From a virus: DNA of 64,000 nucleotides. Location: the IMG/VR virus record IMGVR_UViG_3300021960_000030, positions 1 to 64,000 of that record, one strand, 5' to 3'. Both the position numbers and the translations under genes were made by a program. The notes under the pieces were generated by a model, which searched no databases, had not been told where the DNA came from, and saw nothing but the letters and a program-made list of their open reading frames with translations. Positions 1-64,000 of this stretch are shown in pieces; position 1 is the first letter of the stretch; every line of letters begins with the position of its first letter.

Positions 1-3000
1 AGATTATCTGTGATATTAACAGTGCCACCAGCAGAATCCAGGATCAGGTTACCTGCAGTGGTGCTGATCTCGTTAGCAGCGTCAACGCCGATTTTGATTT
101 GATCAGCGGTGATATCCGTGGAGGTGATTGCATGGTTAAAGGTTACTGTACCATTAACAGTGTGAGCATCGGATCCAGCGTTACCAATAGTGCTATTACC
201 ATTGACCTGCAGAGTACCACCAATGTAGGTGTTACCAGTTCCAGCAGAAACAGTGAATACTGTCTGAACACTAAAGTTACTTTGTGTGGAAAGACCACCA
301 GTTACAGAAACGTTGCCACCAACTGCTACGTCATCAGTAACATTGAGGTCATCGCCCACATATAGATCAAGACCGACGCTAGCGCCACCACCAACGATAA
401 GAGCACCAGAAGCAGAGTTTGTGGCGTTGGTAGTATCAAACAGTTTCAGAGAACCAGCGTCAATGCCAGAGCGAGTGCCATTGAAGACTTCACTGACGTT
501 AGATGCACTGTGATAGAACGCATAGCGCCCTGCAGAATCGTCCCAACCGAAGAAACCGAGACGAGCAGCAGAGTTTGCATAATATCTGAACTCAACACCA
601 CGATCCTTACCATCGTTGCTTGTGGGGGCAGTGTCGCCGCCCAGAGTGACGATAGGATCATCTAGGGTCACAACAGTGCTATTAACTGTTGTAGTCGTAC
701 CATGAACCGTCAGGTTTTGGTTGATGATAACATTCTGATCAACTTCCAGATCGCCATTAACAGTTACGTTATCAGTGAAGGTGGAGACAGCGTTGACTGT
801 CAGAACGTCTGTGTTGACATCACCGATAGTTGTATTGTAACCAGTGATGTTGACTTCGCGGTTGAATGTTGCATCACCGTGAACAAGCAGAGCACCATCA
901 GTAGCGTTACCCTGACCAACACGACCAATAGTAGTGTAACCAGACTCGCCAAGGACAGAGAACTCAACGGTATCCGCAGCACCGACCTTACCAATATAAA
1001 GGTCGTCACCAATGTGCAGGTCTTGGACAATACCAACACCACCCGCAACTCTCAGGTTGGCCGCGGCGTCATCTGCATAAGTGGAGTTCTGAGCATTGCT
1101 AGAACCAAGATATGCATGATACTTAATGTCAACGTTGTTGAGCAGTGAAGGACGTGTGCGGGCAGTGCCAGCATCCTTAACTACAATGCGATCAGCAATG
1201 TAGAGGTCAGTTGCAATGCGGACATCTTTCTCGATGTTAACACCACCAGCGAAGGTAGCGTTACCCTGAGATGTCAGGGAGACATCAGATTCAGAAGAAG
1301 TTGCATCAACAACAATGTTGGTTGTACGCTCAAAGGTATTGAAGTTACCAACGTTCAGTGTACCTTCAATATCGGTATTACCACTTGCAGATGCAACACG
1401 GAATGTCTGTACTGCACCGTTAGTAATAGTGAAGAACTTATTATTAGTATCAAGTGTGATGTCGTCGTGGAAGACGGAATCCTGATCAACATCCAAAGTG
1501 TTGTTGAGGGTTACCGCACCATCGACATCGAGAGTGTTGTTGAAGGTTACTGCACCGTCAACATCGAGTTGACCTTCGGTGTGAACATTACCAGTTGTGT
1601 AATCAACGGTAAACTCTTCAGCAGTGTCATCCATGATGACAAATCTCTTACCAGACTCGGTAGAAGTCTGCTTGAAGATAACATTATCATCGACTTGAGT
1701 CTGACCCCAAGCATACAATGTACCCCAAGTAGTAGTGTCACCAGTATTGCTGTCAACCTTAAACTTGACCAGACTACCAGCAGTGGTAACCAAGAACTCT
1801 TTATTATCTGCACGCAGAGAGAGGTCGTTGTAAATGTGAGTCTCGCCGTCAATAAAGACGCGATCACCAACGTACAGTCTCTCAGAAATACCAGCACCAC
1901 CTGTGACAACCAGAGTACCAGATGTCTTAGAGGTAGAACCAGTGTTAGTTGTTAGTCTGAGGTTACCAGTAATGAGAGGAGCGTCAGTACCAGCAAATAC
2001 TTCGCTTGTGTTAGTCGCGTTGTAGAGGAGGCGATAGCCACCAGTGCCGCTCCAAATGTTAGAATCCGAGTAATCCTCGTCCCATCCGAAGAATCCGACT
2101 CTTGCTTGTGTATCATAGTAGTTGAACTCAATACCTCTATCTTTACCATCATCGACGGTAGGAGCGGTATCGCCACCCAACTTAACGATAACGTCATCGA
2201 TTGTAACAACTGTCGAGTTGACTGTAGTCGTTACACCATCAACAGTCAGGTCACCACGGATACGAACAACACCAGTAACATCGTCATCATCATTAGGATC
2301 GAGGATGAGAGTGGAGTTTGTGGTAGACAGAACATTGTCTTGGAAATGGAAGTCTTCCAGATTGACTCTGTGATCAACATCGGTAACCGAGATTGTGATG
2401 TCCTGATCACAGGTGATGTTCATTGTTGCGTCACCAGCACCAGCGTTGGTAACGTTGATATCGAAGGAGCGATTGCTCGCTTCGTTAACTTCCAACGCGA
2501 GTTCTAGGTTGCCACTGGTACGCTTGATGAACTGGTCTACCTTCGTAACGTCGAGGGTAAGATTACCAGAAAGGGTAGTGTCAAGGTTAATGTCAATAGC
2601 GCCAGTGAAAGAAGAACCACTTGTGGCGCTCCCATTGCCGTTAGGATCATCAGGAGTAATAGCGGGATAGCTATTACCCTGCGACAGGATGGAAGGTTGG
2701 AAGGGATACTCAGCAGTATCGTAGCCAACAACTCTGAAAACAGAACCACCAGTGCGGTTGTTAACGTTAACGTGGTTGATGGTAGTGATGCCATGATATG
2801 CATTATCAGTGGTACGCTCTCTGTCGAGCTCAAAGGTTTCAGTGGTGTTCTGGTCTGTGAACATCAACAGACCGTGGGATTGTAACTGATAGTTTTCTAC
2901 TGCATTCTCAGCGATAGTTACATGACCGCCGATAGTGCTGTTGGTCCCATCCCAAACAGTAACGTTAAAGTCTTCCTGAGCAAACGATGCAAGACCCTTT

Positions 3001-4031: not shown

Positions 4032-4071
4032 TGCTTATTAAGATAGTGCCAGCGGTACCTTGCCTTCTAGT

Positions 4072-4079
4072 TATTTATG
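4072..4079 (-). promoter_or_regulatory. T4-type late promoter (CATAAATA) for the fibre gene
   Basis: 7/8 match to TATAAATA, about 40 nt upstream of the ATG at 4031 and just after a terminator. Confidence 0.65.
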
Positions 4080-4083
4080 CCAG

Positions 4084-4106
4084 AAAAAAAGAGTCCCGAA
4101 GGACTC
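4084..4106 (-). terminator. Intrinsic terminator with UUCG tetraloop
   Basis: Minus strand GAGTCC-TTCG-GGACTC-TTTTTTT directly after the stop at 4113. Confidence 0.9.
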
Positions 4107-4112
4107 TCTATA

Positions 4113-4325
4113 TCATTCTTCGGGTGTTTCAGTGGATTGTTCACCTTCTGGTTGACCCAAATACTCTAGTGTTTCGATTGCACCAAGCAGTTTCAGTGCT
4201 TGTGCTTCGTTGTTCTTAATCGTCTGAGTAAGTTCTTTGTTCTGATTGATCAGATTTGTATACCGTTCACGAAAGTTAGCGAGCAGTTCAGTCTGGTCCA
4301 TAGTTTCAGTCACTTCAGCGGGCAT
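4113..4325 (-). CDS. Small coiled-coil hypothetical protein (likely start MPAEV at 4325)
   Basis: Heptad-like ELLANFRERYTNLINQNKELTQTIKNNEAQALKLLGAIETLEYL; tightly packed in the operon. Confidence 0.7.
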   Translation of the reverse strand: MPAEVTETMDQTELLANFRERYTNLINQNKELTQTIKNNEAQALKLLGAIETLEYLGQPEGEQSTETPEE

Positions 4326-4575: not shown

Positions 4576-4638
4576 GATCTAATAATCCTATTAGAATAAC
4601 ACTGTAAGGGTTCAGAAGAACAGCTATAGCTTTAAGTA

Positions 4639-7600
4639 TTAAGTAGCGAGTGCAATCGCTCTCATATCAGCAATAAGCGGAACTCTTGCTTGGTTCTTGG
4701 ACTTCAGCACCAACTTGATTTGGAAGGCGTTGAAGTTCAGACCATTGACCTCATATTCATAATCCTTCCAGAGGAGTTCTTCGGTGGGGGTGTCGTCGTA
4801 AACAATCGTTGACGGGAACGGAACCCAATCCACTTCTTCGGGTCTAGTAGAAGAACCAAAGGTGAACACCTTATAGTAAGGATAGATGAAGGAGTCCCCA
4901 GTTCTTGTAATCTGGAACGACAACTTCAAGGAACGAGACTCGTTAGTGAGTCTTGCAAGACGGGTGAGGTACACCGCGTCATTCTGATCACCAACAGGAT
5001 CGGTAGAGGTGTCAGCAGTGCTATCAATGTTTGCCTGAGAAGGAATAACAGCAGAACCACCTGGCCAGTAGTTGATACGGTTGGATGTAGTAATCAGAGA
5101 GCAACGATCAAGGTCAACCACAGGAGACAAGCTAGTGTTCTTTGTGGAAAGTTGAACTTGCATCGTCAAGGACTTGCTACCTTCCATCTTGTTGTTCTCA
5201 TTGATTTGAGAAGCAATCAATCTGGGAGTTGCGAAACTGTTCACTTCATTGAGAACGATTTCTTCAAAGTCGCCAGTGTTGATGAAAGATGCCTGGTCAA
5301 TGTTTCTTGAACCATCGCCAATCGAAGTTGCCGTAGTAGTATTTACCAAGGCACGAACGGTGGTTTCTGGCAGGTTCATAACCTTCAGTGTCGGGGTAAT
5401 GGTCTCGAACTGTACGTTCTGAGATGCAAAAACACCCTTACCACCGCCACGGATACCGTTGGTTGCAACACTTGCGGTGTGAATCATGTAAGTATCCAAC
5501 CACGGGCAGGAGATCTGCAGGTGTGTCTTGTTCAACTCTGTCAGAGGAATACCGTCAAGGTTGTAACACTCAACGACCGAACCAGCAGGGTGCTCAACAG
5601 CAGCAGTACCATCGGCACCACGACCAGAAGGAGCAACCGTAATAGTTTGACCAGTTGCAGAGATTGCGCTATATGCAATGATCTCATCCCCAATCTTGAT
5701 ATAACCAGGGTTGGTTGTTCCAACAGGTTGGTTATTCAGGATGACGTGGAAGGACAGAGCATCTTGGACAGCAATGTTTGTAGCGTCAGCAGCCAACGTC
5801 GATGTCAAAGTTGTGGGACTTATTTCGGATATGATGCCCTCAACGGTGATGTTGTTGCTGCGCTCATGCATACCATGGTTCTTATGGTATACCAACACTT
5901 CTTTCTCATCACTGTCGTAAGAGGGAGAAGCGGTAGGATACCCTGTACGGGAATCACCACTGTATGTAACACCAGCAGCAACGATTGTTGCAGTAACACC
6001 AGAGGTGTTGGAGATGGTGTCAGCATCAGTAAAGGTACCTAAGCAGAAGTTTGCTTCGATAATGCCCGATCCTTCATCGAAGGAAATCACGGTTGCCTCA
6101 GCGTCACCACCATTAGTGATGACTTGACCCACTTGGAACGCACCATTTTGCACCACAGAAGTAGTGATGGTTACAAGTGACTGAGAAGATTTGAATACGT
6201 TGAAGATGCCACCGCCTTGCTGGAGGAAACCAGTTGCGAATGTTCCTTCAATGTCATTCAGGGTCAATCTTGGGGTAGAACCAGTAGTGTCAAACTCAAC
6301 AATCGTACCTGCAGCATTGGAAGGATCCTGAATCAAACGTGCACCAACGGTAAACGTTTCGGTGAATGTTGGAGGAAGATCGATAATCTGCTTGGGTTTC
6401 AGAGTTTGTATTGGGTTCTCAATCAAGTTGTGAACACCACCATTACCTCTACCCAGTGTGCAGTTGTTGAACACTGCAACACCAGATGTAGGACCAAAGA
6501 TGCAACGGTTAATGCGGAACTTCAGGTCTTCATACTGGTCTGCTGTCCAGGTAGATGCGTTCTGCGACTTGAACAGAACACCAGCATACGGTTGTTCGGA
6601 GATCGTTCTTGTGCCAGAGACATCAACGTCACCCATTCTGGAGATCCAGACCTTATACTCGTTAGAGTCGGACAGGAGAACGAAACAATATTCTGTGGAC
6701 TGCTTAATATAAACAGGTGCACGGAAGATGAACTTGGTTGGAATAGCAGCGTTCTCAGATGTTTCTACCTGTGCAGGGTTCAGTGTGATATCCGAGAAGG
6801 GCAGAATAATGCCAGTCGGATAACCATTCTCCATGGTACGAATCTGCATGGAGATCGGAATGTTGCTGTCCTTGGTTGCAAAGAAAATGTCAACCGAGTT
6901 CAGATACATGCCACCTTCTTCATCCAGAATGAAGGACTGTGCCAGAGGGTCATACCAACCAATCTGGCGTGTCTCAGTTCTGGTAGAGACAACGTTTCTT
7001 GTGCTAGAAACAGTGTCACGAACAATCTCAGCGTTACGAACTGCCAGGATATTTTCCTGAACAGTATTCAGAACACCTCTTGCTTCGTAAGTTGTTTCTG
7101 CAGAAGAGTCAACGGTGCCAGGAAGTTTGCTGTTGTCGGCATTCGTTGTAAAGCGGAAGGTACGAGTACCAGTTGCGAAACGGGGGTTTGCATCCTCGTT
7201 GGGGTTCGGGATGAACAGAGTACCCGCAAGTTCACCAACGTTGTTAGAGATCAAACGACGATCCTTGACGACGGCACGAGCACCAGAGGTTTGACCGACA
7301 AGAACTTCACCAACAGCAATGTTACCGAAGAAGTCGGGGTTTTTGGTTTCTGCCAGAGCATCGGTATCGATGTTCAGAATATCTGTCTGCGATGCATAAG
7401 ATTCAGGCAGAGCAGAAGATGTGCCAGTGTAGGGGTTGAACTGACCACCATCGTTGGGTTGGGCAACCTTCAAACGGCAACCAGATCGAGAACCAATCAC
7501 AGTCTCACCCACAACAAACGGAGTTTCGTTGGTGTTGGGATCTGCAGCAGAGTTCTTCACCAGTTCGATGATCTTCGGCAACATGTAGTTGTTTACATTC

Positions 7601-10600
7601 ACGTTATCGAAGAATGTATAGAAACGAGTGTTGGGTTTCATACGGGAAACCTTGTAACCAACGTTTCTGGAACGAATCCAGGGGACTGCTGTCTGGGACA
7701 GGATGCTGTCGCCCAAAGACTTGCGATCAACACGGGGAACGACACGAGTTCTAATACCCTGACGTGTCTGGTTGTTAACAACACGATATGTGCGACGTTC
7801 GTGCAGGTAGAAAAGACCTTGACGACGTTGACCGTGACCAGCACGACCCAACTGACGACCAACACCATATCTACCAGACTGACTCAGGAAACTGTTTCTA
7901 GATTGTATAGTTTCACCAGTCCAGTTAGTCTGCCAAGAACCCCACTGAATAGGAGCAAAACCATTCTGGTCAATGTTCAGGTCTCTAGCAACTGCAGAGA
8001 AGTCACCTTCAACGTTCTCAACTCGTGCAGGCAGACGCTTGGTATCAATCCAATCGTCAGAAGACGGCAGAAGGTCAATACGACCAATGAATGTAAATAC
8101 GTTGAACGGGTTAACGTTTTCTTGACGAGAAGCATATGGTTGCTCAACGATCATTTCCTCAACATAAGGAAGTGTGAGAACGTTTGCTTCGTGTTTGATG
8201 ACGTTACTGGACTGCTGTTCGTTCCACTCCAGAGCAACGTTAGTTGTATAGTGTGAAGGACGCAGAATACCTTCTCTAAAGTCCAGAGAACACTTGTAGT
8301 CAGGACTCAGAACATCACCAACTGTGTGGTCGGTGAAGTCGTCAACAACATAACCGTTCTTGAATCTGTCAAGACCGTTTGCATCGTAGGACTTGGTGTT
8401 ATCTGCCTGAACTTCAAGCAGAGACAGGGAGGTGTAGTATTCAACCTGTGCTACACGAGCCTCAAGGTCGCCAATGTCCTTCATAGTGAAGCGACGAATC
8501 TGCTCAGGCTTGATGATTACGTCACGCTCTGGATTGTAGACATATGGTTTGAGTTCCATTGTTGCAAGCAACATGGCATTCTCAACCTTGTCGGGAGGCA
8601 AAAGATCATCGCCAGGTTTGCCCTGTGCAACAAAGATTTCGTTGTTGTTACCCAGATAAACGTGATCAAGTCTGGGTTGATACCAGGAGTAGTCAGCACG
8701 GAATGCTGTCTCTACACGCATGATATCGAAGATCGTGGATCCGCCAGCAGCATTATTCTGTGTGGAGAATACACGGGAATCAAAGTCAAGAGAGGTACAG
8801 TTCACATAGTAGGGGTTGCCTACAGTACCAGAACCCTCTGCTTGCTCACCAACTGCAGGACGGAAGTCAATCTGGTCAACCAGGAAGTTGATACTACCGT
8901 CAAGTTTGTAGTTGGGGATTTCTTTGAAAGGAATACCTGTATAAGACTGTGCCGAGAAGTAATCACCAGTTTGTTCATGCAGGAAGTAATCGAAGATGAC
9001 GATCAGTCTTCTTGTCGGAGCAGTGATATTTGGTTCACGAATGAGTTTGGAAACGTCAGTAAAGTGAGAACCTTGCTGAGGATCCAGGTTGAATGAGGTT
9101 GTGATGTTTCTAGCGCCAACAATAACAGAACCATCAGCGTCATCAATCAGTGCTGTCAGAGCAACACCATCATCGTCAAAACCATCAATGATCTCACCAG
9201 GAACAAACTGAATATTGTTCAGGGATACGTTATAGAGGCGAAGGGTGGAGTTTACAAACGAAATCACTCTCGCTCTAGCACCAGATGTACGACCAACGAC
9301 AACAGAACCAACGTCAAAGAAGGTTGCCGAATCAAGGACAACATACGGAATCTGGGCATCTTCATCTGACTCAGACTCATACACAGCATGAATCTTATAG
9401 ACATCGTTCAGACCGAAGGAGATCTCGCTGTCTTCAATACGAGTACCGTACAAGTTACCGTAAGCAAGACCAAACTTCAGAGTATCGTTCTGCTGGTTTG
9501 TCTTGATAACCTTCATGACACGCATCTTGGATGCTGTCTTGATCTTTCTGGAAACGGTATTTTTCGAGACCAGTGCATTCAGGTGTACCGAGGTAACACC
9601 AGACAGACCTTGAATAGTGATTGACTGTCTTTCAGCACCGAAGCTAACTGTCAAGTTCTGTGCATCGTTCTCGATTTCCAAATCGAGGTTTTGACCAACG
9701 GTATAGGAAGAACCAGATTGTGCAGCAACAGTCAGAGTAAAGTCGCCCTCATCAAGAGAACCGAATGCTTCGGACTCAGGAAGGGTAATGGTGATATCAC
9801 CGTTACTTACAACTTTGTTAATGAAAGATCTGTAGACGAAGAATGATTCGTCAGACAGAGAACGCATCGAACGATATGGCAAGTCGATGCTGAGTTCACC
9901 GTTCTGATACGATTTCATTCTCAGATAAGGTCTCAGTCTAATGACTGTGCCTTGTGCATACTCACCATCGGGAATAGATCCCTTAGTCAGTGCGGTATCA
10001 AGTAATGCAGTCTGCTCAGCGTAGTTGAAGATGAAGTTGGAAACTGTAGAAGCAGAGTTTGCTGCTGTTACATCGATTGCTGTTGGATCAACTCTCTTAA
10101 CACGCAGAGTGCTTTCACCTTTTACCGATGTACCAGTTACACGGAGAACTTCACCAGGACGGAGTTCTGTACCGAAGGTGGAACCGTATCCATAGAGAGT
10201 TTGTGTGCCTGCCTGATCAACATCAACGTTGTAGCAGTCAATGCTGTACTGGTCATCAAGGCTAACGTTACAACCAAAGACAACGGCGGAACCTTGGTTC
10301 CTACCAATCATTGATCTGGTGTCTTGGAACTGATAACCAAAGACAGCATCAATCTCTCCAACAACACGACCGTCTCTTGTGACGACTTCGTTATTTGTGA
10401 ATGTACCAGAAACCTGATACAGGGTCACATATTTGCGGCTCTGCTGACTGGTTGCACCTTCATATACATATGCTCTTGCACCAGAAGTACGACCTTGGAT
10501 TACATCGCCAGGTTGCAGTTGGACGTTCGTCTTGAAGTTCATCAAGGTGAACATCTGAATGTCCATCATGTACAGGTTATGGAAGTCTGTACCAAGAGTG

Positions 10601-11994
10601 GTATCAGTCTTCACATACTTCATCTGAACAACACGGGCTTTACCGATCATGTTGCCCTGAGAACTACCTGTATAGGTGGAGTAATCAGTTGTGTCGTTGG
10701 GAGCGATCATCCAGTTATCGCGGAGTTCGATAACCTGATATGCATTTTGGATGCCATCTCCAGAGATCTGGGGATTGCCATAAACGTCATAAACTTCGAC
10801 AAAGTTGCCGAGTTCAAACGAAATAATACCGTTCTCTCTGGTTTTGAATGTTCTGGGTTTGGGAACAGACGCATACTGAGGTGTCAGGAACTCAGTCCTA
10901 TAACCTCTAACATATGCTCTACCAGGACCAACCTCAACGGCAAGATATTCATCAGAAGCACTGACACCATCGGGGGAGATTTCACCAGTCCTGTAAACAC
11001 CGTTGTTGAAGAAGTCATCGAGGTGCTCACGAGCGGTAACGTCGAATGTATCGACAACATAGTCACCACTCTCTTCAAACGTACGACGTGCGAGAGAACG
11101 CTCAAGTTCGGAATATGCAGTTTTGTTTACAACCTGTTCAACCTTACTCTTGTTGATTCTCAGCAGTTCAATGAAGTTCTTATCAGTATCATCATTGATT
11201 GCCTTCTTGGTCAGTGTCGTCCTAATACGGAAACGGTGACCGCCAGGTGCCGAGTAGTTAGATGAACCAGCAGCGTTGTCGTTCAGTGAGGGGTCATCCT
11301 CAGGAGTGATGATCGACTCGCTTACATCAAGACCAATACGGTAAGAGGGATTGTTTGTGTATTGATCAAGCAGAAGGTATGCAGACTCCACGTCTACAAA
11401 GTAACCTCTGATGAAGTACACACCAGCATTGATGTATGCAACAGAACCAGTTGCAGTTGCCGCTGCTGGCAGAAGTTGTGCAAACGGAGAAGAAACCTCA
11501 ATCAGGGTTGAACCGAAAGTGATTTCGTTCTCAGCATAAAGCTGTTCATTATTGATAAACTCTTTTACGCCTACATCAGAGATGGTGTCTCCAGAATCGA
11601 CGTACTTGACATAAAGGGTGATATAACCTTTATCCGATTCTGTAGCGGGAATCGAGTACAGCACCTTTGCTTTAACGCCAGAGGTGACACCCGTAACCAG
11701 TTGCCCGTGCAGTTGGGTGCGGTAGTTTTCAACGTCAACACCCAGGAAGTTCTGCTGCAGAATAACTGCTTTAACATTCAGGTCGTAACCAATCTGACCA
11801 GGAATGACCATGGCACCTTCTTTGAAGAAGTGTTGACCCATGGACTCGATTTGGTTCTGCAGAATAGTCTGCATCGAGGTAAGTTCCCTAGCCTGGATCG
11901 GGAATCCTGGTCTAAAGAGAACTCGGTAAAAGTTTTTGTCCTTATCGAAGTCGTCAAAATAAGGACTAATGTTCAGATTAGTATTCTGGGGCAT
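4639..11994 (-). CDS. Large virion structural protein, DUF4815/VrlC-like (2451 aa)
   Basis: N-terminus MPQNTNLNISPYFDDFD..YRVLFRPGFPIQARELTSMQTILQNQ; internal RFTMKDIGDLEARV..EYYTSLSLLE, RFKNGYVVDDF and DPLAQSF motifs; next to gp8. Confidence 0.85.
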   Translation of the reverse strand: MPQNTNLNISPYFDDFDKDKNFYRVLFRPGFPIQARELTSMQTILQNQIESMGQHFFKEGAMVIPGQIGYDLNVKAVILQQNFLGVDVENYRTQLHGQLVTGVTSGVKAKVLYSIPATESDKGYITLYVKYVDSGDTISDVGVKEFINNEQLYAENEITFGSTLIEVSSPFAQLLPAAATATGSVAYINAGVYFIRGYFVDVESAYLLLDQYTNNPSYRIGLDVSESIITPEDDPSLNDNAAGSSNYSAPGGHRFRIRTTLTKKAINDDTDKNFIELLRINKSKVEQVVNKTAYSELERSLARRTFEESGDYVVDTFDVTAREHLDDFFNNGVYRTGEISPDGVSASDEYLAVEVGPGRAYVRGYRTEFLTPQYASVPKPRTFKTRENGIISFELGNFVEVYDVYGNPQISGDGIQNAYQVIELRDNWMIAPNDTTDYSTYTGSSQGNMIGKARVVQMKYVKTDTTLGTDFHNLYMMDIQMFTLMNFKTNVQLQPGDVIQGRTSGARAYVYEGATSQQSRKYVTLYQVSGTFTNNEVVTRDGRVVGEIDAVFGYQFQDTRSMIGRNQGSAVVFGCNVSLDDQYSIDCYNVDVDQAGTQTLYGYGSTFGTELRPGEVLRVTGTSVKGESTLRVKRVDPTAIDVTAANSASTVSNFIFNYAEQTALLDTALTKGSIPDGEYAQGTVIRLRPYLRMKSYQNGELSIDLPYRSMRSLSDESFFVYRSFINKVVSNGDITITLPESEAFGSLDEGDFTLTVAAQSGSSYTVGQNLDLEIENDAQNLTVSFGAERQSITIQGLSGVTSVHLNALVSKNTVSRKIKTASKMRVMKVIKTNQQNDTLKFGLAYGNLYGTRIEDSEISFGLNDVYKIHAVYESESDEDAQIPYVVLDSATFFDVGSVVVGRTSGARARVISFVNSTLRLYNVSLNNIQFVPGEIIDGFDDDGVALTALIDDADGSVIVGARNITTSFNLDPQQGSHFTDVSKLIREPNITAPTRRLIVIFDYFLHEQTGDYFSAQSYTGIPFKEIPNYKLDGSINFLVDQIDFRPAVGEQAEGSGTVGNPYYVNCTSLDFDSRVFSTQNNAAGGSTIFDIMRVETAFRADYSWYQPRLDHVYLGNNNEIFVAQGKPGDDLLPPDKVENAMLLATMELKPYVYNPERDVIIKPEQIRRFTMKDIGDLEARVAQVEYYTSLSLLEVQADNTKSYDANGLDRFKNGYVVDDFTDHTVGDVLSPDYKCSLDFREGILRPSHYTTNVALEWNEQQSSNVIKHEANVLTLPYVEEMIVEQPYASRQENVNPFNVFTFIGRIDLLPSSDDWIDTKRLPARVENVEGDFSAVARDLNIDQNGFAPIQWGSWQTNWTGETIQSRNSFLSQSGRYGVGRQLGRAGHGQRRQGLFYLHERRTYRVVNNQTRQGIRTRVVPRVDRKSLGDSILSQTAVPWIRSRNVGYKVSRMKPNTRFYTFFDNVNVNNYMLPKIIELVKNSAADPNTNETPFVVGETVIGSRSGCRLKVAQPNDGGQFNPYTGTSSALPESYASQTDILNIDTDALAETKNPDFFGNIAVGEVLVGQTSGARAVVKDRRLISNNVGELAGTLFIPNPNEDANPRFATGTRTFRFTTNADNSKLPGTVDSSAETTYEARGVLNTVQENILAVRNAEIVRDTVSSTRNVVSTRTETRQIGWYDPLAQSFILDEEGGMYLNSVDIFFATKDSNIPISMQIRTMENGYPTGIILPFSDITLNPAQVETSENAAIPTKFIFRAPVYIKQSTEYCFVLLSDSNEYKVWISRMGDVDVSGTRTISEQPYAGVLFKSQNASTWTADQYEDLKFRINRCIFGPTSGVAVFNNCTLGRGNGGVHNLIENPIQTLKPKQIIDLPPTFTETFTVGARLIQDPSNAAGTIVEFDTTGSTPRLTLNDIEGTFATGFLQQGGGIFNVFKSSQSLVTITTSVVQNGAFQVGQVITNGGDAEATVISFDEGSGIIEANFCLGTFTDADTISNTSGVTATIVAAGVTYSGDSRTGYPTASPSYDSDEKEVLVYHKNHGMHERSNNITVEGIISEISPTTLTSTLAADATNIAVQDALSFHVILNNQPVGTTNPGYIKIGDEIIAYSAISATGQTITVAPSGRGADGTAAVEHPAGSVVECYNLDGIPLTELNKTHLQISCPWLDTYMIHTASVATNGIRGGGKGVFASQNVQFETITPTLKVMNLPETTVRALVNTTTATSIGDGSRNIDQASFINTGDFEEIVLNEVNSFATPRLIASQINENNKMEGSKSLTMQVQLSTKNTSLSPVVDLDRCSLITTSNRINYWPGGSAVIPSQANIDSTADTSTDPVGDQNDAVYLTRLARLTNESRSLKLSFQITRTGDSFIYPYYKVFTFGSSTRPEEVDWVPFPSTIVYDDTPTEELLWKDYEYEVNGLNFNAFQIKLVLKSKNQARVPLIADMRAIALAT

Positions 11995-18563: not shown

Positions 18564-18571
18564 TATTTATT
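18564..18571 (-). promoter_or_regulatory. Probable late promoter (AATAAATA)
   Basis: ATAAATA core overlapping the stop of the giant gene, 10 nt upstream of the YHYH gene. Confidence 0.55.
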
Positions 18572-56578: not shown

Positions 56579-56583
56579 AAAAG

Positions 56584-56617: not shown

Positions 56618-56628
56618 TATTTACTTAA

Positions 56629-56811: not shown

Positions 56812-56833
56812 TTGGTGTCTTTGTTTGGTACCC

Positions 56834-57403
56834 TCATAGTATAGGCACAGGATTGCGGAGATCCAGGGGATCGTGGACAGCAAGTGGACTGGCACACTTC
56901 CAGACGTACCCGAGACTGTATCGAATAGGTTCACTCACAGGAGGGCAACCTTGATGCCATATTGTACTGTCAAACAGCACTAATCGCCCTGGTTTGCACT
57001 CAACATGCATAGTTTCACCCTGTTCAGTATAAAACAGAGTGTCACCATCGCCTCTGATGTAATACAGACCACTGATTCTGTCGCTTCCCTTTAGAACATC
57101 CCAATCCGTGTGACTTTGGGCGTTCTGCCCAGGCGTCTGCACGTTCAGCAGGCAGCGATCAAGTTTTTGGATTCTATAATCCAACAGGATGTCATTGCAC
57201 ACTACCATATGCAAATAGTCCACAAACCAATGAGGAGCAATGGGTGCAATCCATCGCTCCTCATCGATAAGCAACTGACCAAAGAACCGACTCACTTCAT
57301 ACTGACCGTAGGGTGAGTTGGTATAGGTTACAGGTATAAGTTGAAACTCTTCTGCATTCTTATTCACCATCCATTGTGGGAAATAGTTATCAACTATCAA
57401 CAT
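56834..57403 (-). CDS. 2OG-Fe(II) oxygenase
   Basis: HTD..GDTLFY..PGRLVLFDSTIWHQG..RYSL (HxD..H..R). Confidence 0.85.
   Translation of the reverse strand: MLIVDNYFPQWMVNKNAEEFQLIPVTYTNSPYGQYEVSRFFGQLLIDEERWIAPIAPHWFVDYLHMVVCNDILLDYRIQKLDRCLLNVQTPGQNAQSHTDWDVLKGSDRISGLYYIRGDGDTLFYTEQGETMHVECKPGRLVLFDSTIWHQGCPPVSEPIRYSLGYVWKCASPLAVHDPLDLRNPVPIL
56838..56896 (-). promoter_or_regulatory. Early promoter copy 6 (palindrome plus TATACT), inside the 3' end of an oxygenase gene
   Basis: GTGGACAG 56873-56880, ACTGGCACA 56888-56896. Confidence 0.65.
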
Positions 57404-57905
57404 GTTGAATACGTTCAGAAATAACCTTAATCATGATAGCACGGATCTCTTCAGGGGCAAAACCTTGAGTGTTAAAGAAGCACGAGTTGCTACCAGCATT
57501 ATATGTATCAAACCCATCAAGGTGTGCAACGTTGAGTGCCTTACCGATCACACCATCAGAGTATGCACCCTCACCGATTGCAAAGGTGACGTATGACACA
57601 TCAGGGTTAATCTTGCGGCAGATGTAGTTGTTCTTGAACCAGCGTTCGATAGCATTACCAGCATCTTGCTGCTTCTTACCTTCAAACACTGCGATCAGTT
57701 TGCCCTTGTAGAACCATGCACCACCATCAGGTTCGCAGGCACCTTTACCACCAGGGATCTGATTCTTCTTCAACTTCTTCTGCAATGTCACACCAGTATA
57801 TTGCAGAACGTCTGCAATCTCTTCCTTGATGACTTTACATTGGTTGTCAAGTTTGCGAGCATGTGCATCAGTAGCAACCATGCCTTTCTGAATGCCGCCT
57901 GCCAT
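57390..57905 (-). CDS. EcoRI/MunI-family type II restriction endonuclease-like protein (171 aa from MAGGIQ)
   Basis: CEPDGG..AVFEGKKQ..AGNAIERWFKN..YVTFAIGEG parallels EcoRI KPDGG..AEAKHQ..AGNAIERSHKN..YVLFLEG. Confidence 0.8.
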   Translation of the reverse strand: MAGGIQKGMVATDAHARKLDNQCKVIKEEIADVLQYTGVTLQKKLKKNQIPGGKGACEPDGGAWFYKGKLIAVFEGKKQQDAGNAIERWFKNNYICRKINPDVSYVTFAIGEGAYSDGVIGKALNVAHLDGFDTYNAGSNSCFFNTQGFAPEEIRAIMIKVISERIQHVDS

Positions 57906-57930
57906 TGTCTTGTGTCGTTTGGACTTCTTC

Positions 57931-57991
57931 ATTATACACACAGAAAAGGGGCGGTGGTGCCGCCCCATGTGGAGGTTGATGGACTGTCACA
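57931..57991 (-). promoter_or_regulatory. Early promoter copy 7 (degenerate palindrome plus TATAAT) upstream of the endonuclease
   Basis: ACTGTCACA 57983-57991; -10 at 57931-57936. Confidence 0.6.
57944..57966 (-). terminator. Intrinsic terminator after the lysozyme-family gene
   Basis: GGGGCGG-CACCA-CCGCCCC-TTTT on the minus strand. Confidence 0.7.
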
Positions 57992-58478
57992 TTGTATATT
58001 TCAGTTTCATCTTTCGATGGTATTGATATGCAAAGTGGGTTCGATTGCCATGGATACCCCAACCCAACCAGGGATAAGAATCACGCACATATTGTGGGAT
58101 TGTTTTCCCTGGGGTTTTCATCCTAGGCAGAATGCCTTGGAACTGCTGCTCATTGTAGAGATAACGGAGTTGTCCTTCCAACGAGTCAACATTGCAGGTA
58201 TGCTTATAGCAAAACTTTGCTAGTCCGTTATACCTGTGTATTGTGGTCCATTGAATCAAACCAAATCCACCAGACTTGCATCCATAATATCCTGTGAGTG
58301 CACCACCTTCGCAAACGAGATGATTAAAGTTGCTTTCTTGCTTGATGTTACCCATCAGTGCAGCGAGAGCATTCTTATCCTTGATCCCTTTTTCTTGAAA
58401 GAACGAGAGTGTTCTTTGTTCGGCAGGGGTACAAGTTTCACATTGATATATGGGTGCAGGAGGTTGATCGTAAAGCAT
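57987..58478 (-). CDS. Phage tail lysozyme-family (Phage_lysozyme2-like) cell-wall hydrolase
   Basis: ALAALMGNIKQESNF..GGFGLIQWT..R..LEGQLRYL..E. Confidence 0.8.
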   Translation of the reverse strand: MLYDQPPAPIYQCETCTPAEQRTLSFFQEKGIKDKNALAALMGNIKQESNFNHLVCEGGALTGYYGCKSGGFGLIQWTTIHRYNGLAKFCYKHTCNVDSLEGQLRYLYNEQQFQGILPRMKTPGKTIPQYVRDSYPWLGWGIHGNRTHFAYQYHRKMKLKYTM

Positions 58479-58483
58479 TAGAT

Positions 58484-59722
58484 TTAGACGAGGGACAGAG
58501 GAGGAATGCCTTTCACGAAGATAGCATCAACTACGTTCTGCAGTCGTTTGGTCACTTGCTTACCGTATGTGCGGTGCACAGGGACAGTTACATAACCGAA
58601 AGGTTTCCTGTAAAAGTCAAACTTACCAGGGGTAAGTTCACCGCTGCGAATGCGAGCGGCGTCATCCTTATGTAGACGGATAACACGCCCGATGGTCTGT
58701 GCCATCTCAACAACGTTGAGATTGCGGAGCAGGATGCAGTGAGTCAGTCCAGGAACGTTGATACCTTCAGACAGAATACTGTAGTGGAAGATAACAAACT
58801 TCTTGGTAGGATCGGCACCCCAAGATGTCAGGGTGTTGAAGAACTGCTCACGATTGACTTTCTTATCGTCTACATAGGCACCGAACTTAGAGGTAACGTG
58901 GAGAACATTGTAACCACGATCCTTAAGTTGTTGGAGAAGATCGGTCTGACCGATCATGTTACCTAGCACACGACTAGACGGCACTGCAACAAGAACCTTG
59001 GCAGCATGAGTATCATCGAGATTGTCAATGATGTCCTGCACGGTGTTGCTGTCAACGACATGTGCGTTGACCTTGTTACGAGTATTGTCTGTGGTGAATG
59101 GCACAATCTGGGGAGGGATGATGCTACCGTTGTTGATCAGTTCCGAAGCAGGAACGTTCTCAATGACGGCACCATAGACCTCACGATTGTGCATTCCACG
59201 CTCATGCTTGTGCGAGATGCGAGGAGTAGCAGTGAAGAAGTAGCAACGCTCTGCAACATCAGAGATGGCAAAGGTGCTGGTGAAGAAAGACTTAGCAACA
59301 CTATTGTGTGCCTCGTCAAAGTACACTGCACTGATATTGATGCCTGCATCAACTACACGACCCAGCGAATGATAGGTGGTGAAGATGATGCAGGACTCAC
59401 CTGCTGCACGAGCGGTGTTGTTGAAGAGAGCAATCTTGCTGCTCTTGGTAGAGTGAAAGTAATGGGTTTCACCACTGTGAGCGTGACACACATGCACAGA
59501 CTTGCTGTCAATGAACTGCATGAACTCATCACACAGTTGAGTAGCAAGCAGGATGCGAGGAGCAACAACAACAATCGTAGAAGATTGCTGCAGTTGACAC
59601 AGTGCATCCTGAATCATGATGAAAGTCTTGCCACCGCCAGTAGGGACAATGATTTGACCCTTATCGTTGACTTGCATTGCTGCAAGGGCACGATCTTGGT
59701 GAGGACGAAGAACAACAGTCAT
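58484..59722 (-). CDS. Superfamily II (DEAH) helicase/ATPase
   Basis: LRPHQ, PTGGGKT, DEAH, TATP, SEGINVP and QTIGRVIR. Confidence 0.92.
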   Translation of the reverse strand: MTVVLRPHQDRALAAMQVNDKGQIIVPTGGGKTFIMIQDALCQLQQSSTIVVVAPRILLATQLCDEFMQFIDSKSVHVCHAHSGETHYFHSTKSSKIALFNNTARAAGESCIIFTTYHSLGRVVDAGINISAVYFDEAHNSVAKSFFTSTFAISDVAERCYFFTATPRISHKHERGMHNREVYGAVIENVPASELINNGSIIPPQIVPFTTDNTRNKVNAHVVDSNTVQDIIDNLDDTHAAKVLVAVPSSRVLGNMIGQTDLLQQLKDRGYNVLHVTSKFGAYVDDKKVNREQFFNTLTSWGADPTKKFVIFHYSILSEGINVPGLTHCILLRNLNVVEMAQTIGRVIRLHKDDAARIRSGELTPGKFDFYRKPFGYVTVPVHRTYGKQVTKRLQNVVDAIFVKGIPPLSLV

Positions 59723-59746
59723 GTATGTGGATCGCTCAACAGAAAT

Positions 59747-59805
59747 AATATACTACCACACCTCACCAGTCGGTGAAAACAGGGTGCACTTCGCAAACTG
59801 TCACA
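59747..59805 (-). promoter_or_regulatory. Early promoter copy 8 (palindrome plus TATATT) upstream of the helicase
   Basis: GGTGCACTT at ~59783, ACTGTCACA 59797-59805. Confidence 0.6.
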
Positions 59806-59939
59806 CCACCCCTCTTGAGGTGCTTTTCCCATTCAATCGCATCAACTAGCGTCAGAAACGTCGCTGTAACTTGCGAAGTATGCCCTTTCTTCTTCTGTCT
59901 CTTCCAAATAACGTTGTATTTCTTCGCGTTTGATGTCAT
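59763..59939 (-). CDS. 58-aa basic hypothetical protein; not in ORF track
   Basis: MTSNAKKYNVIWKRQKKKGHTSQVTATFLTLVDAIEWEKHL.. Confidence 0.6.
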   Translation of the reverse strand: MTSNAKKYNVIWKRQKKKGHTSQVTATFLTLVDAIEWEKHLKRGGVTVCEVHPVFTDW

Positions 59940-59990
59940 AAACAGAGGGAAGTTGCTTAGCGTTTGAATGTTGCGGATCTTGTTGGGGAC

Positions 59991-60326
59991 TCATTGGGGG
60001 CGCTCTCCTTCAGGTAGCATATCGTTGCCAGGATGTTCAGGAATGTAACCATGGTATGCTTTGTGATTGTAGAAGTGTGAATCTTCTATTTCAATCTCAT
60101 CCCAATCATGTTGATAGATTAGCAAACAACATTGTGTTGTTGGTTGTCTAGCAGATGGGTCACCGTGTTCATATTCATGAAAACACATTGAGATGTAATC
60201 ATTACAGGTAAAGCAGATGTAACCCTCTAAACCTTTGTACCGAATGGGTGATCCGATCTCAAGTGATTTCAAGATGTTCCTGATCTCCAGGGCAACTGAC
60301 TCTGAGATTAGCAGGGGTGTGGTCAT
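59991..60326 (-). CDS. Hypothetical protein
   Basis: ATGA-coupled; GYICFTCNDYISMC..CCLLIY. Confidence 0.7.
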   Translation of the reverse strand: MTTPLLISESVALEIRNILKSLEIGSPIRYKGLEGYICFTCNDYISMCFHEYEHGDPSARQPTTQCCLLIYQHDWDEIEIEDSHFYNHKAYHGYIPEHPGNDMLPEGERPQ

Positions 60327-60955
60327 ATTGTCAACCTATTGGTACAGTCTCCGTACTGTCCATGCAACCAATAGTTGAACGCAACACTATACCGATCCGA
60401 CAGACTTCGGTTAGGTTCAACACTATGCTCTACAGTTGATGGGAACAGCAATATCAATGCTTCCTCAGCAGGTATAGACCAGCACGATGAGTTGTAGACA
60501 TTGTGCTCAACAATATCAGGTCTCATTGCTGGTGTTGTATATGTGTCACGATTGGAATCTGCGTGAAACAATATATCCCCACAGTTGGGTGGCGTCTTTA
60601 TGTATATGACACCACTATACATTGAGTTGCAATGTGTATGTTTGTGTGCAGAATGACCTATTTTGTGTCTAGTTGCCCACGAACAATGATGCCGTGCTAC
60701 ATATCTCTTATCGAAGCACAGTATGTTATACAAATAGTGATTCAGATGTCTCTCAACCAGTGCCTTTAACTCTGGGCACCCATCTAATAGTCTTTGGTTG
60801 GAAGTATTCTCACCATTCTTCTCTTGTGGGTCAGAATAATACTCCTGATTAACAACATACTCCACTATCTCTGTAGACAGTGGAGCATTGCGAGACACAT
60901 ATAATGGATTGTTGAACAGTGGAAAGACTGATCTATCGTAATCACCTAAGTTCAT
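60323..60955 (-). CDS. Putative 2OG-Fe(II) oxygenase, TIGR02466-like
   Basis: HTHCNSMYSGVIYI, LLFPSTVEHSVEPN and RYSVAFN. Confidence 0.88.
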   Translation of the reverse strand: MNLGDYDRSVFPLFNNPLYVSRNAPLSTEIVEYVVNQEYYSDPQEKNGENTSNQRLLDGCPELKALVERHLNHYLYNILCFDKRYVARHHCSWATRHKIGHSAHKHTHCNSMYSGVIYIKTPPNCGDILFHADSNRDTYTTPAMRPDIVEHNVYNSSCWSIPAEEALILLFPSTVEHSVEPNRSLSDRYSVAFNYWLHGQYGDCTNRLTI

Positions 60956-61560
60956 AGCACCAAATCTCGTGTGGGTGCACTGAAGTCACCCTTCATGATT
61001 ACATTAAATCCTAATGAATATCTATCTTGTATAGACTCATTGTATCCTGTGTAGTGGTCTACATGTGCAGGGAAGCATACAATCATGCCACGCTCAGGTA
61101 CAATCTGCCAGATGCGTGAGTTGAATATATTATTCTCCCATGTTCGTGGTTCCAATGTACCTGTGTTCCATGTGGCATGATTATATGATGCCTCAAAGAT
61201 AATGTTGCCACTATCATCAGGCACGTCAAGATACAGGCAACCTGTGAACATACTATTGGTATGTCCATGCCTGTCTGCTCTTTCACCTGGGCGATGTTTA
61301 TTCACCCATGAGCATACAATCTCACACGTCACTCGATCATCAATAGCGAGGACATTGTGAGCATAGTGGGCAATATGTCCAAGACAAATGTGATGCAGTT
61401 GTGGATACCTTCGTAAAATCTGAGTATCAACAGTCTGCATCCCATCTGCCCGCTTGGGGTAATCCTTATATTCTTCCTGTTTGATTAAATCTATCTCATC
61501 TTGTGGAATGTCATAGGTGTCAACAAATACAGGTGTGGAGAATATAGGAAAGACAGTCAT
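60952..61560 (-). CDS. Putative 2OG-Fe(II) oxygenase, TIGR02466-like
   Basis: HGHTNSMFTGCLYL, CFPAHVDHYTGYN and RYSLGFN. Confidence 0.88.
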   Translation of the reverse strand: MTVFPIFSTPVFVDTYDIPQDEIDLIKQEEYKDYPKRADGMQTVDTQILRRYPQLHHICLGHIAHYAHNVLAIDDRVTCEIVCSWVNKHRPGERADRHGHTNSMFTGCLYLDVPDDSGNIIFEASYNHATWNTGTLEPRTWENNIFNSRIWQIVPERGMIVCFPAHVDHYTGYNESIQDRYSLGFNVIMKGDFSAPTRDLVL

Positions 61561-61796
61561 TTTTCAGTGGGTTCAAGATGTAATGTAGTAACGATCTCAT
61601 GAATCGTAGCACGTTGTTTAGGACTGATGTCTCCCTGCCTTTTATAGAGGTCAGAGAGTAATAGTAACATTGCCCTCTTAAGTAATCCTTTTGCCTCGTG
61701 ACTAAGTTGTGCTGACTTGAGGAACATCGGTCTCGTTCTCCTTACGAGTTTCGTAGTATTGTCCGACGATAGTGACACGGTTGCCCTTGAAACCAA
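61557..61796 (-). CDS. Small hypothetical protein (true start probably the internal MFLKSAQ)
   Basis: Fills the gap between the lyase and an oxygenase; ATGA overlap downstream. Confidence 0.55.
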   Translation of the reverse strand: MVSRATVSLSSDNTTKLVRRTRPMFLKSAQLSHEAKGLLKRAMLLLLSDLYKRQGDISPKQRATIHEIVTTLHLEPTEK

Positions 61797-62211
61797 TCGT
61801 CTGTCGTAATCTTACCGTGTCATTATGTAAAAGTCGAATCTCTTCACGAAATCTTTGTTTTCCATATTCTGTATCAAAGAGGATAGTATCCTCATCAATC
61901 ATAGTTACATCAGTCATGGTGGGACTGGAGGTCATATATCCCTGAGAGCGATACATCTTCCCATCCTTACTATTGATTCCGACAAGCATCTCACCAGATG
62001 AAGCAGGTTCACCTGAACTATATTTAACAGTTTCCCATCCAAACTTTACATAATAGTCACTGTGGACATCTTCTGGGATGACTGCTTTCTCAGCATCATT
62101 TAGTTCACCAACGAGGAGTTCACTGGTCATGAGTTCTGCACTCTCACCATACAAATATCTACGGTGGGAATGCCATTCACCTTTCGATCTATCGAACCAT
62201 TGTGTAATCAT
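61702..62211 (-). CDS. Phycobiliprotein (bilin) lyase, CpcS/CpeS (S/U-type, CpcV-like) family
   Basis: WFDRSKGEWHSHRRY, GKMYRSQGY, TEYG..FREEIRLL..RLRQT and GQYYETR match the S-type lyase pattern FF.S.G.W.S.R / G.L.R..GY / T.Y....EE.....R.R / E.R. Confidence 0.75.
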   Translation of the reverse strand: MITQWFDRSKGEWHSHRRYLYGESAELMTSELLVGELNDAEKAVIPEDVHSDYYVKFGWETVKYSSGEPASSGEMLVGINSKDGKMYRSQGYMTSSPTMTDVTMIDEDTILFDTEYGKQRFREEIRLLHNDTVRLRQTIGFKGNRVTIVGQYYETRKENETDVPQVSTT

Positions 62212-62744
62212 ACTGACCTCTTCAGATTTACATTTAGAACGACACGAATGCCTTCCTTGGGTGGTGTTGATGCATGTAGAATATGTCCAGGGAAATGTAC
62301 TACACGACCCTGCCTACAGTCTACACTATCAGTGAGTTCTAGTCTGTCATTGAAGAACAACGTGGGTGCTTTTTCGTTTTCAGTTATATACCACAACACC
62401 ACGTCATGTTCCTCACTGAAGTCTACATGTGGTTTGTTATGTTTCTTCTTGGTAGGATACAACAAACCCAATCGTGCACGATATATATCCTCATGACTAT
62501 ATCCATACAGACTTGCAAACTGACACAACTCTAGATGAAATAGATCATAGTATGGTGATCGTACCTCATAGTCCATCTTTAATAGATGCATGAATGCACC
62601 ACCACCAGAGGGCACAAGGTCTGTGGCATCAGGTATATAATGCCATGGAAACTCAGGCGAGGTAACTATACGTTCAATCTCTTTTGTTGCTACATCAGAG
62701 ATTAAGTGCGTATTGATTTCTGTCTGGTTTGTTCTCAGGATCAT
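62208..62744 (-). CDS. 2OG-Fe(II) oxygenase
   Basis: FPWHY, PHVD, GRVVHFPGHILHASTPP and RVVLNVN. Confidence 0.85.
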   Translation of the reverse strand: MILRTNQTEINTHLISDVATKEIERIVTSPEFPWHYIPDATDLVPSGGGAFMHLLKMDYEVRSPYYDLFHLELCQFASLYGYSHEDIYRARLGLLYPTKKKHNKPHVDFSEEHDVVLWYITENEKAPTLFFNDRLELTDSVDCRQGRVVHFPGHILHASTPPKEGIRVVLNVNLKRSV

Positions 62745-63387
62745 GCCAACATGGAATACTTAGGGACAGTCGTTCTTGATCAGGACGAGCACAATGATAG
62801 CAGCGTGATGGTATATACAACATGTCTCCAGGTTGTAGTACCGTATCGATTGCAGGTGTTACTTCATCCTTACTAGGATTATAGGGGAATCCAGTATATT
62901 TGACAAGTGTACTCACTCTCTCATTATATACTGTCCAGTGTGTCTCACCATGTATTTGCATGATGAAGTTTGCTGGTTGATCCCAATGAATCTTGAATGA
63001 ACTTGCACCACCTAATGCACCATAAATGTGTGCATCACATGCTACATCGAATGTACCCTCAATCCTACGCAGCAATGCATTAACACGAGCATTGTGATGA
63101 CCATACTTAGCGATCACAAATGTGTTGTTCCTATTGACAAGTTCAAAGATAACTTTCTTGTCTGGATGCCAGTTACCATGCCACGGGTGAGGCACAGTGG
63201 GCATAGGAACTTTGGTGTTGTTGTTATCTAAAATCTCAACATTATACACCCAGGGATTGTTTAGGCAATGCTCAACATCTGCCCAGTGCACATACTCTGT
63301 GGGTGTGTCACATACACCCTTGAATAACATCGGGGTGTCACCACATGTGTAGTGGTTAGGATTCAGAAATGGATACGAAATGGACAT
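62695..63387 (-). CDS. JmjC/cupin (ROX/YcfD-like) hydroxylase
   Basis: AHIY..SFKIHWD..NFIMQIHGETHW..LQPGDMLYIPSRCYH..RLSLSI. Confidence 0.85.
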   Translation of the reverse strand: MSISYPFLNPNHYTCGDTPMLFKGVCDTPTEYVHWADVEHCLNNPWVYNVEILDNNNTKVPMPTVPHPWHGNWHPDKKVIFELVNRNNTFVIAKYGHHNARVNALLRRIEGTFDVACDAHIYGALGGASSFKIHWDQPANFIMQIHGETHWTVYNERVSTLVKYTGFPYNPSKDEVTPAIDTVLQPGDMLYIPSRCYHCARPDQERLSLSIPCWHDPENKPDRNQYALNL

Positions 63388-64000
63388 TTAGATTCCCTCT
63401 TCATGATTAAATCCCAGGACTTATATGGTGCCCAGTGTTTGAGTTGCTGATCCTGTTTGATCCTTTCTAGTTTATCAGGAGATGGTGTCTTTCTACTCAG
63501 TTTGAATGTATCTTTACCACGCACAAACTTAGCATGAAAGATAGGTGTGCCACGTTTGATTACTATATCGTCATCAATACGATGAGGAACAATACCAATG
63601 GGCAACGATCTCATCCATGATGAGACAGGAAATGTGCCAGGGACAACACTAAACCCATGTTGTGCAACTGTGGGGTGTCCAGTATATTCTACCCACACAT
63701 TCTTGGCATCAGTCCAGAACAATGTATTGTATCTGATTTGTATCTCAGGCAGTTCATCATTCCACCAGTTAGGACTAATCATGAACAGATCTTGGAGTTT
63801 ATCTCCATGCGTATCAGATCCGATCATGCGATGCTCATTGCTACACCTGAAGTGTAGATCAAATGGGAAATAGAATGTCCACCTATTCTTACACCACTCT
63901 TTGTGTGCTGGGCAATACATATGGTCGTGAGACTTTATCCCATCATTGTATGCAATGGTGGGTGTAATCTCCCAATCTTCAGCAAAGGTAGGAATCTGGT
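63363..64000 (-). CDS. Hypothetical protein, 5'-truncated by the window end
   Basis: Frame stays open upstream of the ATG at 63920 to the window end; YCPA, VVPGTFPVSSW.R, IKRGTPI and KCPF motifs. Confidence 0.7.
   Translation of the reverse strand, partial: QIPTFAEDWEITPTIAYNDGIKSHDHMYCPAHKEWCKNRWTFYFPFDLHFRCSNEHRMIGSDTHGDKLQDLFMISPNWWNDELPEIQIRYNTLFWTDAKNVWVEYTGHPTVAQHGFSVVPGTFPVSSWMRSLPIGIVPHRIDDDIVIKRGTPIFHAKFVRGKDTFKLSRKTPSPDKLERIKQDQQLKHWAPYKSWDLIMKRESKCPFRIHF

Follow-up and report, generated by a model that had tools for sequence, protein, structure and literature searches.

The AATT-free stretch and its nuclease gene

The window considered here comprises 64,000 nucleotides and corresponds to the first part of G000, a viral contig of 111,864 bp (IMG/VR record IMGVR_UViG_3300021960_000030; 45.9% GC) with a CheckV completeness of about 63%. 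By nucleotide similarity the contig belongs among the T4-like Synechococcus myoviruses, for example S-WAM1, S-M1 and S-RIM2, and the window covers a portion of the genome of such a marine phage. Two features of this DNA are the subject of the present work: the complete absence of the tetranucleotide AATT and a minus-strand gene, located at 57.4–57.9 kb, for a predicted compact nuclease of the EcoRI family (Table 1).

An exact search retrieved no AATT from either strand of the window, against 201 occurrences expected from a second-order Markov model and 339 from a zero-order model, and 100 dinucleotide-preserving shuffles of the window contained on average 289 (standard deviation 14). The trinucleotides AAT (982 occurrences) and ATT (923) are both present, with no pair of them overlapping into AATT. 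The word is also missing from the whole of G000 (339 expected by the Markov and 599 by the zero-order model), from the sister contig G001 (73,883 bp, 86.8% nucleotide identity to G000; 0 observed, 232 expected) and from a third member of the lineage, L359, which comes from another metagenome (14,857 bp; 0 observed, 55 expected), and it is to these sampled parts that the zero-site finding applies. AATT is absent from each of the three codon phases of the coding DNA and from the approximately 14.4 kb that crude gene calls leave as non-coding, where about 62 would be expected. GATC, in turn, is plentiful, with 364 occurrences in the window and an observed/expected ratio (O/E) of 0.77, within an overall range of 0.77–0.83. 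These counts bear out what a sequence-only reading of the window had noticed, namely that AATT appeared to be absent from coding and intergenic DNA where a few hundred occurrences were to be expected, while GATC was abundant; the same reading overlooked the absent CCGG and the depleted RGCY words described below.

The 171-amino-acid (aa) product of the minus-strand gene was modelled with AF2 (pLDDT 77, pTM 0.73). The five best matches of the model in a Foldseek search of the PDB were all EcoRI (probability 1.0, E around 1e-5; next match E 0.03), and VIA-align superimposed it on EcoRI with Z 13.9 and a root-mean-square deviation of 2.5 Å over 151 residues (next entry 9.1). A profile of 75 family sequences likewise retrieved EcoRI chains from the PDB with E values of 5e-12 to 2e-10 (next 0.03), aligning the family segment cePDGG...vavfEaKkQ with IKPDGG...VLVAEAKHQ of EcoRI, and GNAiERwfkn with GNAIERSHKN (EcoRI residues 140–149, GNAIER being 140–145). 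By the fold of the model and by the family profile, the protein is predicted to be an EcoRI-family nuclease, of which it is a new compact branch. The catalytic PDGG..EaK and the GNAiER columns are the best conserved of the family. The key residues, in the numbering of the mechanically called open reading frame (ORF) P0001, are Glu79-Pro80-Asp81, Glu96, Lys98 and Gly104-Asn105-Ala106-Ile107-Glu108-Arg109; Pro80-Asp81, Glu96 and Lys98 do not vary among 26 close homologues and reach at least 90% conservation in a set of 75 diverse ones, and, across the 75 sequences, Gly104, Asn105 and Arg109 are invariant and Ala106 and Glu108 at least 90% conserved.

In EcoRI, Ala142 wedges into the central AATT, whose A:T pairs make bonds with Asn141, Ala142 and Arg145; N/AATTN is the relaxed specificity of the enzyme, and MluCI, which cuts AATT, is placed in one group with EcoRI and MunI (PMC4081073). 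With the GNAIER segment preserved, the phage nuclease most likely recognises AATT, a predicted specificity that agrees with the one proposed from the letters of the window, and it would cleave this word, as the carrier-specific depletion of AATT in genomes also suggests. A comparison of G000 with G001 gave a dN/dS of 0.09 for the nuclease gene (dS 0.30), equal to that of the adjacent helicase gene; the nuclease gene is therefore under purifying selection and maintained, not a relic.

A profile search of the whole library placed the members of this family, mostly of 170–200 aa, in 276 clusters at 50% identity, from which the 75-sequence profile was drawn, and the window's nuclease falls in PHROG 2400, whose function is unassigned. 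In the S-CREM2 record the nuclease is labelled 'restriction endonuclease EcoRI', although the corresponding paper does not discuss it. The homodimer prediction reached a score of 0.69, with 0.53 for one unrelated control, and counts neither for nor against dimerisation. A 51-aa segment containing the motifs matched only HUWE1, which was rejected as a chance match.

The conserved start MAGGIQ, aligned with 25 homologues, corresponds to residue 23 of P0001. The terminator-like hairpin lies within the spurious 5' extension of this ORF, and therefore, from the MAGGIQ start and from the overlap of the hairpin and of the TATAAT box with the extra 5' codons, we took the shorter frame as the true gene.

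Table 1. Features of the window and of the remaining part of contig G000 (contig coordinates).
Feature	Position	Strand	Basis or remark
AATT-free DNA	1..64000		exact count; also true of the rest of the 111,864-bp contig, in coding and non-coding DNA alike
Gene for predicted 171-aa 'mini-EcoRI' PD-(D/E)XK nuclease	57390..57905	-	family alignment, AF2 model, profile
Mechanical ORF P0001	57390..57968	-	192 aa
TATAAT box, candidate promoter of the nuclease gene itself	57931..57936	-	pattern only, read from the sequence; 26 nt before the nuclease ATG
Terminator-like hairpin	57948..57966	-	seven G:C pairs, then a T run; ends the upstream lysozyme-like gene
Lysozyme-like protein	57987..58478	-	neighbour of the nuclease gene
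Helicase	58484..59722	-	neighbour of the nuclease gene
2-oxoglutarate (2OG)-Fe(II) oxygenase-like genes (four), JmjC/cupin protein, CpeS-like bilin lyase	56834..57403 and 60323..63387	-	around the nuclease-helicase region
Giant ORF	4639..11994	-	2,451 aa
Giant ORF	18567..41138	-	7,523 aa
tRNA cluster (Asn, Ala, Thr, Ser)	79366..80169		beyond the window
ARAGORN tRNA call	79929..80001		two-base anticodon

AATT, the nuclease and the methylase in the lineage and its relatives

G000 and G001 diverge by 13.2% over 65,200 aligned positions. From the spectrum of substitutions between the two contigs, some 138 AATT would be expected to have arisen at positions one mutation away from this word, and none is seen. 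The zero extends to codon choice: in G000, asparagine is never encoded by AAT before codons starting with T (0/265; 41% elsewhere), isoleucine never by ATT after codons ending in A (0/249; 45% elsewhere), and lysine, glutamate and glutamine never by NAA before TT codons (0/276; 49% elsewhere), while the dipeptides involved occur at the same frequency in the control genome G007. Words one mutation away from AATT show no depletion, AATG, AATC and AATA being in fact enriched; at the 88 AATT sites of G007 that lie in alignable blocks, G000 has mostly single-base variants. The avoidance of AATT in coding DNA is, consequently, fully synonymous, dependent on context and under ongoing selection, in line with the strong selection that the sequence-only reading had supposed. 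Assembly artefact and mutational bias are ruled out as causes of the zero, since three independent assemblies agree, the one-off neighbours are not depleted and the effect depends on codon context.

A D12-class N6-adenine methyltransferase is located one or two genes from the nuclease in S-RIM2 and S-CREM2, and directly after it or just downstream in 43 of 47 nuclease-containing viral-contig loci. This linked methylase forms a clade (50–79% identity within) with 20–25% identity to a second, 'core' D12 clade (41–62% within), which is present in carriers and non-carriers of the nuclease alike; AATT is at normal levels in each of the 80 loci that contain the core methylase. S-RIM2, S-CREM2 and also S-BM1 are carriers of nuclease and methylase that exist in culture. 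No D12, C5 or N4/N6 methylase, nor remnants of one, was found in the 112 kb of G000, about 63% of the genome, and the same holds for G001 and L359. Two walks towards the missing region, one anchored on the core methylase of G007 and the other on the gp44 clamp loader, did not find an AATT-free contig. Beside the nuclease of S-CREM2 (locus L129, accession OR473000.1, 7383–9992), a gene is annotated as 'CRISPR-associated endonuclease Cas9/Csn1 (virion protein)', which looks over-reaching, and in four low-GC (36%) contigs a DUF6267 protein directly follows the nuclease (L104, 379–1863; L109, 1797–3277; L400, 6284–7764; and L387).

The neighbouring helicase, which is present in phages with or without the nuclease, was used to fetch 80 cyanomyovirus loci. 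The 78 without nuclease all have ordinary AATT (median O/E 0.84), and the two with nuclease have 0 of 75 and 8 of 61 expected occurrences. Two further control sets, of 80 loci anchored on the core methylase and 77 anchored on the gp44 clamp loader, are all normal, so that the median O/E of non-carriers is 0.84–0.87 over three independent locus sets, and none of the approximately 235 control loci is AATT-free. The 47 loci anchored on the nuclease itself contain 1201 AATT against 2692 expected, with O/E from 0 to about 0.86. Carriers of both nuclease and methylase (R+M carriers) have a median O/E of 0.39 (n=43), compared with 0.84 for non-carriers (n=78); the Mann-Whitney p of 4e-17 overstates the evidence, as the loci are not phylogenetically independent.

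The same gradation is observed in larger contigs and genomes (observed/expected AATT): two complete genomes without nuclease, G007 (462/580, O/E 0.80; 45.6% GC, CCGG 0, AGCT 0.06 and GGCC 0.21) and G008 (909/1006, 0.90); the R+M carriers G004 (990/1431, 0.69), G005 (356/561, 0.63), G016 (383/665, 0.58), G006 (168/674, 0.25), G015 (25/130, 0.19), G012 (42/336, 0.125) and G014 (17/207, 0.08); and, with the nuclease only, G000 and G001 (O/E 0.00 in both). An equal loss of AATT in phages without the gene, which would have pointed to host restriction, was thus not seen. AATT loss follows the nuclease in phages that differ in the other words they avoid, since the R+M carriers G012 and G014 are depleted with normal CCGG. 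The G012 lineage (L266–L269, L386, L388 and L393) keeps the methylase and is nearly AATT-free over 80 kb, with 0/26, 2/51 and 1/41 locally; its CCGG is normal, and it may represent an intermediate stage towards the methylase-free state. The AATT that remain in R+M carriers show no single missing hexamer and a lean to AAATT that is confounded by GC content, which gives weak support for a 4-bp core.

AATT is not the only avoided word. CCGG is absent from the window and the contig (89–180 expected), the RGCY words AGCC, AGCT, GGCC and GGCT are 3–8-fold depleted in them, and the hexamers AGTACT, ATTAAT, GACGTC and TTCGAA do not occur. CCGG is equally absent from 78 of the 80 helicase loci and from G001, G007 and G008, and the RGCY words are 3–10-fold depleted across marine T4-like cyanophage loci (L001–L080, L181–L260 and L282–L358); CCGG and RGCY avoidance is therefore group-wide and independent of the AATT nuclease, and may stem from host restriction or from a conserved phage enzyme. 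Among the seven large contigs first compared, GACGTC is absent from six (two occurrences in the seventh), and TTTAAA is absent from four, again without dependence on the AATT nuclease. Codons for lysine, glutamate and glutamine ending in G rarely precede CTN leucine codons (10 versus 260 ending in A in G000; 6 versus 454 in G007), a gap that is the codon-level signature of the group-wide avoidance of AGCT.

The order of genes in the nuclease-helicase region differs from that of G007, and the region looks hyperplastic; the position of the nuclease relative to the helicase also differs from that in S-RIM2-type phages. The larger of the two giant ORFs aligns in part to G007, with 65% identity over about 1,400 aa. 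In the tRNA-Ala of G000 the identity pair G3:U70 is accompanied by another G:U pair, G5:U68; this wobble was given no weight as evidence of AATT avoidance, since G5:C68 would avoid AATT equally.

Origin of the AATT absence

We consider it probable that the phage carries a predicted AATT restriction enzyme to which it is immune for want of sites, the nuclease having been kept, the linked methylase being missing and all AATT having been removed. According to this proposal, the gene would encode a minimal EcoRI-family Type II endonuclease for AATT, which in most nuclease-bearing relatives would form, with the D12 methylase, a phage restriction-modification (R-M) pair accompanied by partial AATT depletion. 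The present lineage, without linked methylase, would have removed AATT by synonymous codon choice and by changes in non-coding DNA, so that its own DNA would present no substrate to its own enzyme, while unmethylated AATT in host DNA or in the DNA of co-infecting phages would be cut. We infer that causality runs from the nuclease to the purge, that the enzyme may be used against host or competitor DNA, in analogy to the nucleases of T4 and chloroviruses, and that the unsampled third of the genome probably holds no protective methylase. Self-inflicted cutting would explain the depletion better than host restriction, because R+M carriers, which their own methylase should already shield from any AATT restriction by the host, are still depleted.

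A more far-reaching version, to which we give an even chance, is that the lineage gave up methylation altogether: it would evade its own four-base cutter by sequence alone, with no AATT in a genome of approximately 175 kb, and be free to destroy host and competitor DNA. Relatives would then keep the intermediate stages, in a series whose first members have nuclease, methylase and many sites, whose later ones have both genes but hardly any sites, and which ends in the nuclease without methylase or sites.

Several observations weigh against the nuclease-driven purge proposed above. First, in a subclade (L104, L109, L387 and L400) the nuclease is intact and has no methylase beside it, with an AATT O/E of 0.68–0.82; purged sites are not a necessary companion of a nuclease that lacks a linked methylase, and some other protection must exist in these phages. 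Second, total avoidance can come from other pressures, because other palindromes (CCGG, GACGTC and TTTAAA) were purged to zero without any known phage nuclease. ATTAAT (0 of 24 expected) and TTATAA (4 of 22 expected), which contain no AATT, are depleted only in the lineage of G000 and G001 (L134–L137) and are normal in G007, and outside pressures on palindromes clearly exist in these phages. Third, nothing in G000 corresponds to the 75-kb block of G007 that holds the core D12 methylase, this region being unsampled; the lineage is without linked methylase, but the statement that it has no methylase holds for the sampled part, and the unsampled 37% or so may contain one. Fourth, the deep nodes of the nuclease tree are not resolved, with long-branch outgroups falling inside the ingroup, so that the tree speaks neither for nor against a secondary loss of the methylase. 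Lastly, the single nuclease sequence has no match in Pfam, NCBIfam or, by sequence, the PDB, a narrow profile has none in the PDB either, and P0001 does not match the Pfam family PF02963 even at E 10; four of the 26 homologues match PF02963 weakly (best E 0.011), and one homologue has a precomputed match to it.

These points bear on three alternatives. The R-M system could be complete but separated, with a cognate or cross-protecting methylase in the unsampled part of the genome and the zero as the extreme of the depletion found in R+M carriers. Separated R-M systems are documented (PMC3488263), and the incompleteness of the contig, the missing block to which the core methylase of G007 maps and the toleration of the nuclease in the AATT-rich subclade, which implies protection encoded elsewhere, are all consistent with such an arrangement, as is the fact that R+M carriers reach an O/E of 0.08–0.13 and come near zero locally. 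We nevertheless consider it unlikely: the linked methylase stands beside the nuclease in nearly all loci and yet is gone without remnants from three diverged members of the lineage, the core methylase is not tied to AATT, since every locus that has it is normal, and a genome with zero sites would leave a cognate methylase without substrate or selective value.

Slightly less likely still is that restriction by hosts, or by competing R+M cyanophages, purged AATT from outside and that the orphan nuclease was gained or kept later, being by then tolerated. The palindromes purged without a known phage nuclease, CCGG foremost, show that such pressures can act to completion, the depletion of ATTAAT and TTATAA in this lineage only suggests outside pressures specific to it, and R+M cyanophages that would cut AATT during co-infections are common. 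On the other hand, relatives without the gene, among them the nearest by helicase and a complete genome of the same GC content with the same CCGG and RGCY avoidance, keep normal AATT, no control locus is free of the word, and its depletion follows the nuclease whatever the avoidance background. Furthermore, when 185,579 species genomes were scanned from a motif seed, an approach that sees close relatives only, no close homologue of the nuclease came up, and a literature search turned up no report of AATT methylation in Synechococcus. That the protein does not act as an AATT endonuclease at all (being inactive, a repurposed DNA-binding protein or of other specificity), with the absence of AATT unrelated to it, is very improbable: the single sequence falls below the Pfam EcoRI threshold and lacks about 100 aa relative to the length of EcoRI, the exceptional subclade tolerates many AATT sites and nuclease activity is itself a prediction, but conservation across the 75 members is highest at the catalytic and recognition residues, dN/dS is low, a dedicated methylase is linked to the gene in most carriers, and the depletion is specific to carriers and confined to AATT, with its one-off neighbours spared.

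Significance and comparison with known systems

If the nuclease-driven purge is correct, self-immunity would be achieved by genome sequence alone, at a measurable cost in codon freedom, and the nuclease would add to the known means by which abundant marine cyanophages may shut off their hosts, recycle nucleotides or exclude competitors. The series from R+M carriers to carriers of the nuclease only offers a natural set for the study of the co-evolution of restriction systems and genome composition, and the compact predicted AATT-specific enzymes constitute a family that is almost unannotated. In a full-text literature search of partial coverage, we found no paper on AATT avoidance in cyanophages or on this nuclease.

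The phage nuclease shares with EcoRI (G^AATTC) the fold, the PD..E-x-K motif and the GNAIER segment, which in EcoRI takes part in the reading of AATT (PMC4081073). It differs in being phage-borne, in its size (171 against 277 aa, with approximately 16% identity) and in having no partner methylase in this lineage. It is also without an insertion of about 20 aa between the catalytic strand and GNAIER and without much of the periphery, which would fit a loss of the reading of the outer bases. The D12-class partner methylase of the relatives belongs to another class than M.EcoRI.

A second likeness is with PacI, a solitary restriction enzyme without methylase whose host genome lacks its sites (PMC3488263) and which belongs to the HNH family and has an 8-bp site made only of A and T (PMC4081073). 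In both cases, as far as the sampled 63% of the phage genome goes, an endonuclease without methylase would be tolerated because the genome of its carrier holds no sites. Restriction enzymes are usually thought to be lethal without their methylase, and PacI, the textbook exception, has a naturally rare site; here, by contrast, the word has four base pairs, is expected 340–600 times in 112 kb and is actively purged, and the carrier is a lytic phage and not a bacterium.

Viral nucleases that can destroy host DNA and spare viral DNA are known from T4, in which EndoII and EndoIV act beside hydroxymethylcytosine-containing DNA, and from the R-M systems of chloroviruses. Those viruses exempt their own genome by base modification or methylation, whereas the exemption proposed here would be purely by sequence. 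Classical restriction-site avoidance, of which the GATC-free Staphylococcus phage K is an example, likewise involves the total loss of a short palindrome under selection against cleavage and is usually ascribed to host enzymes; in the present case, the avoidance tracks the phage's own nuclease gene and is absent from sister phages without it, which suggests that site avoidance in phages need not mirror the defences of their hosts.

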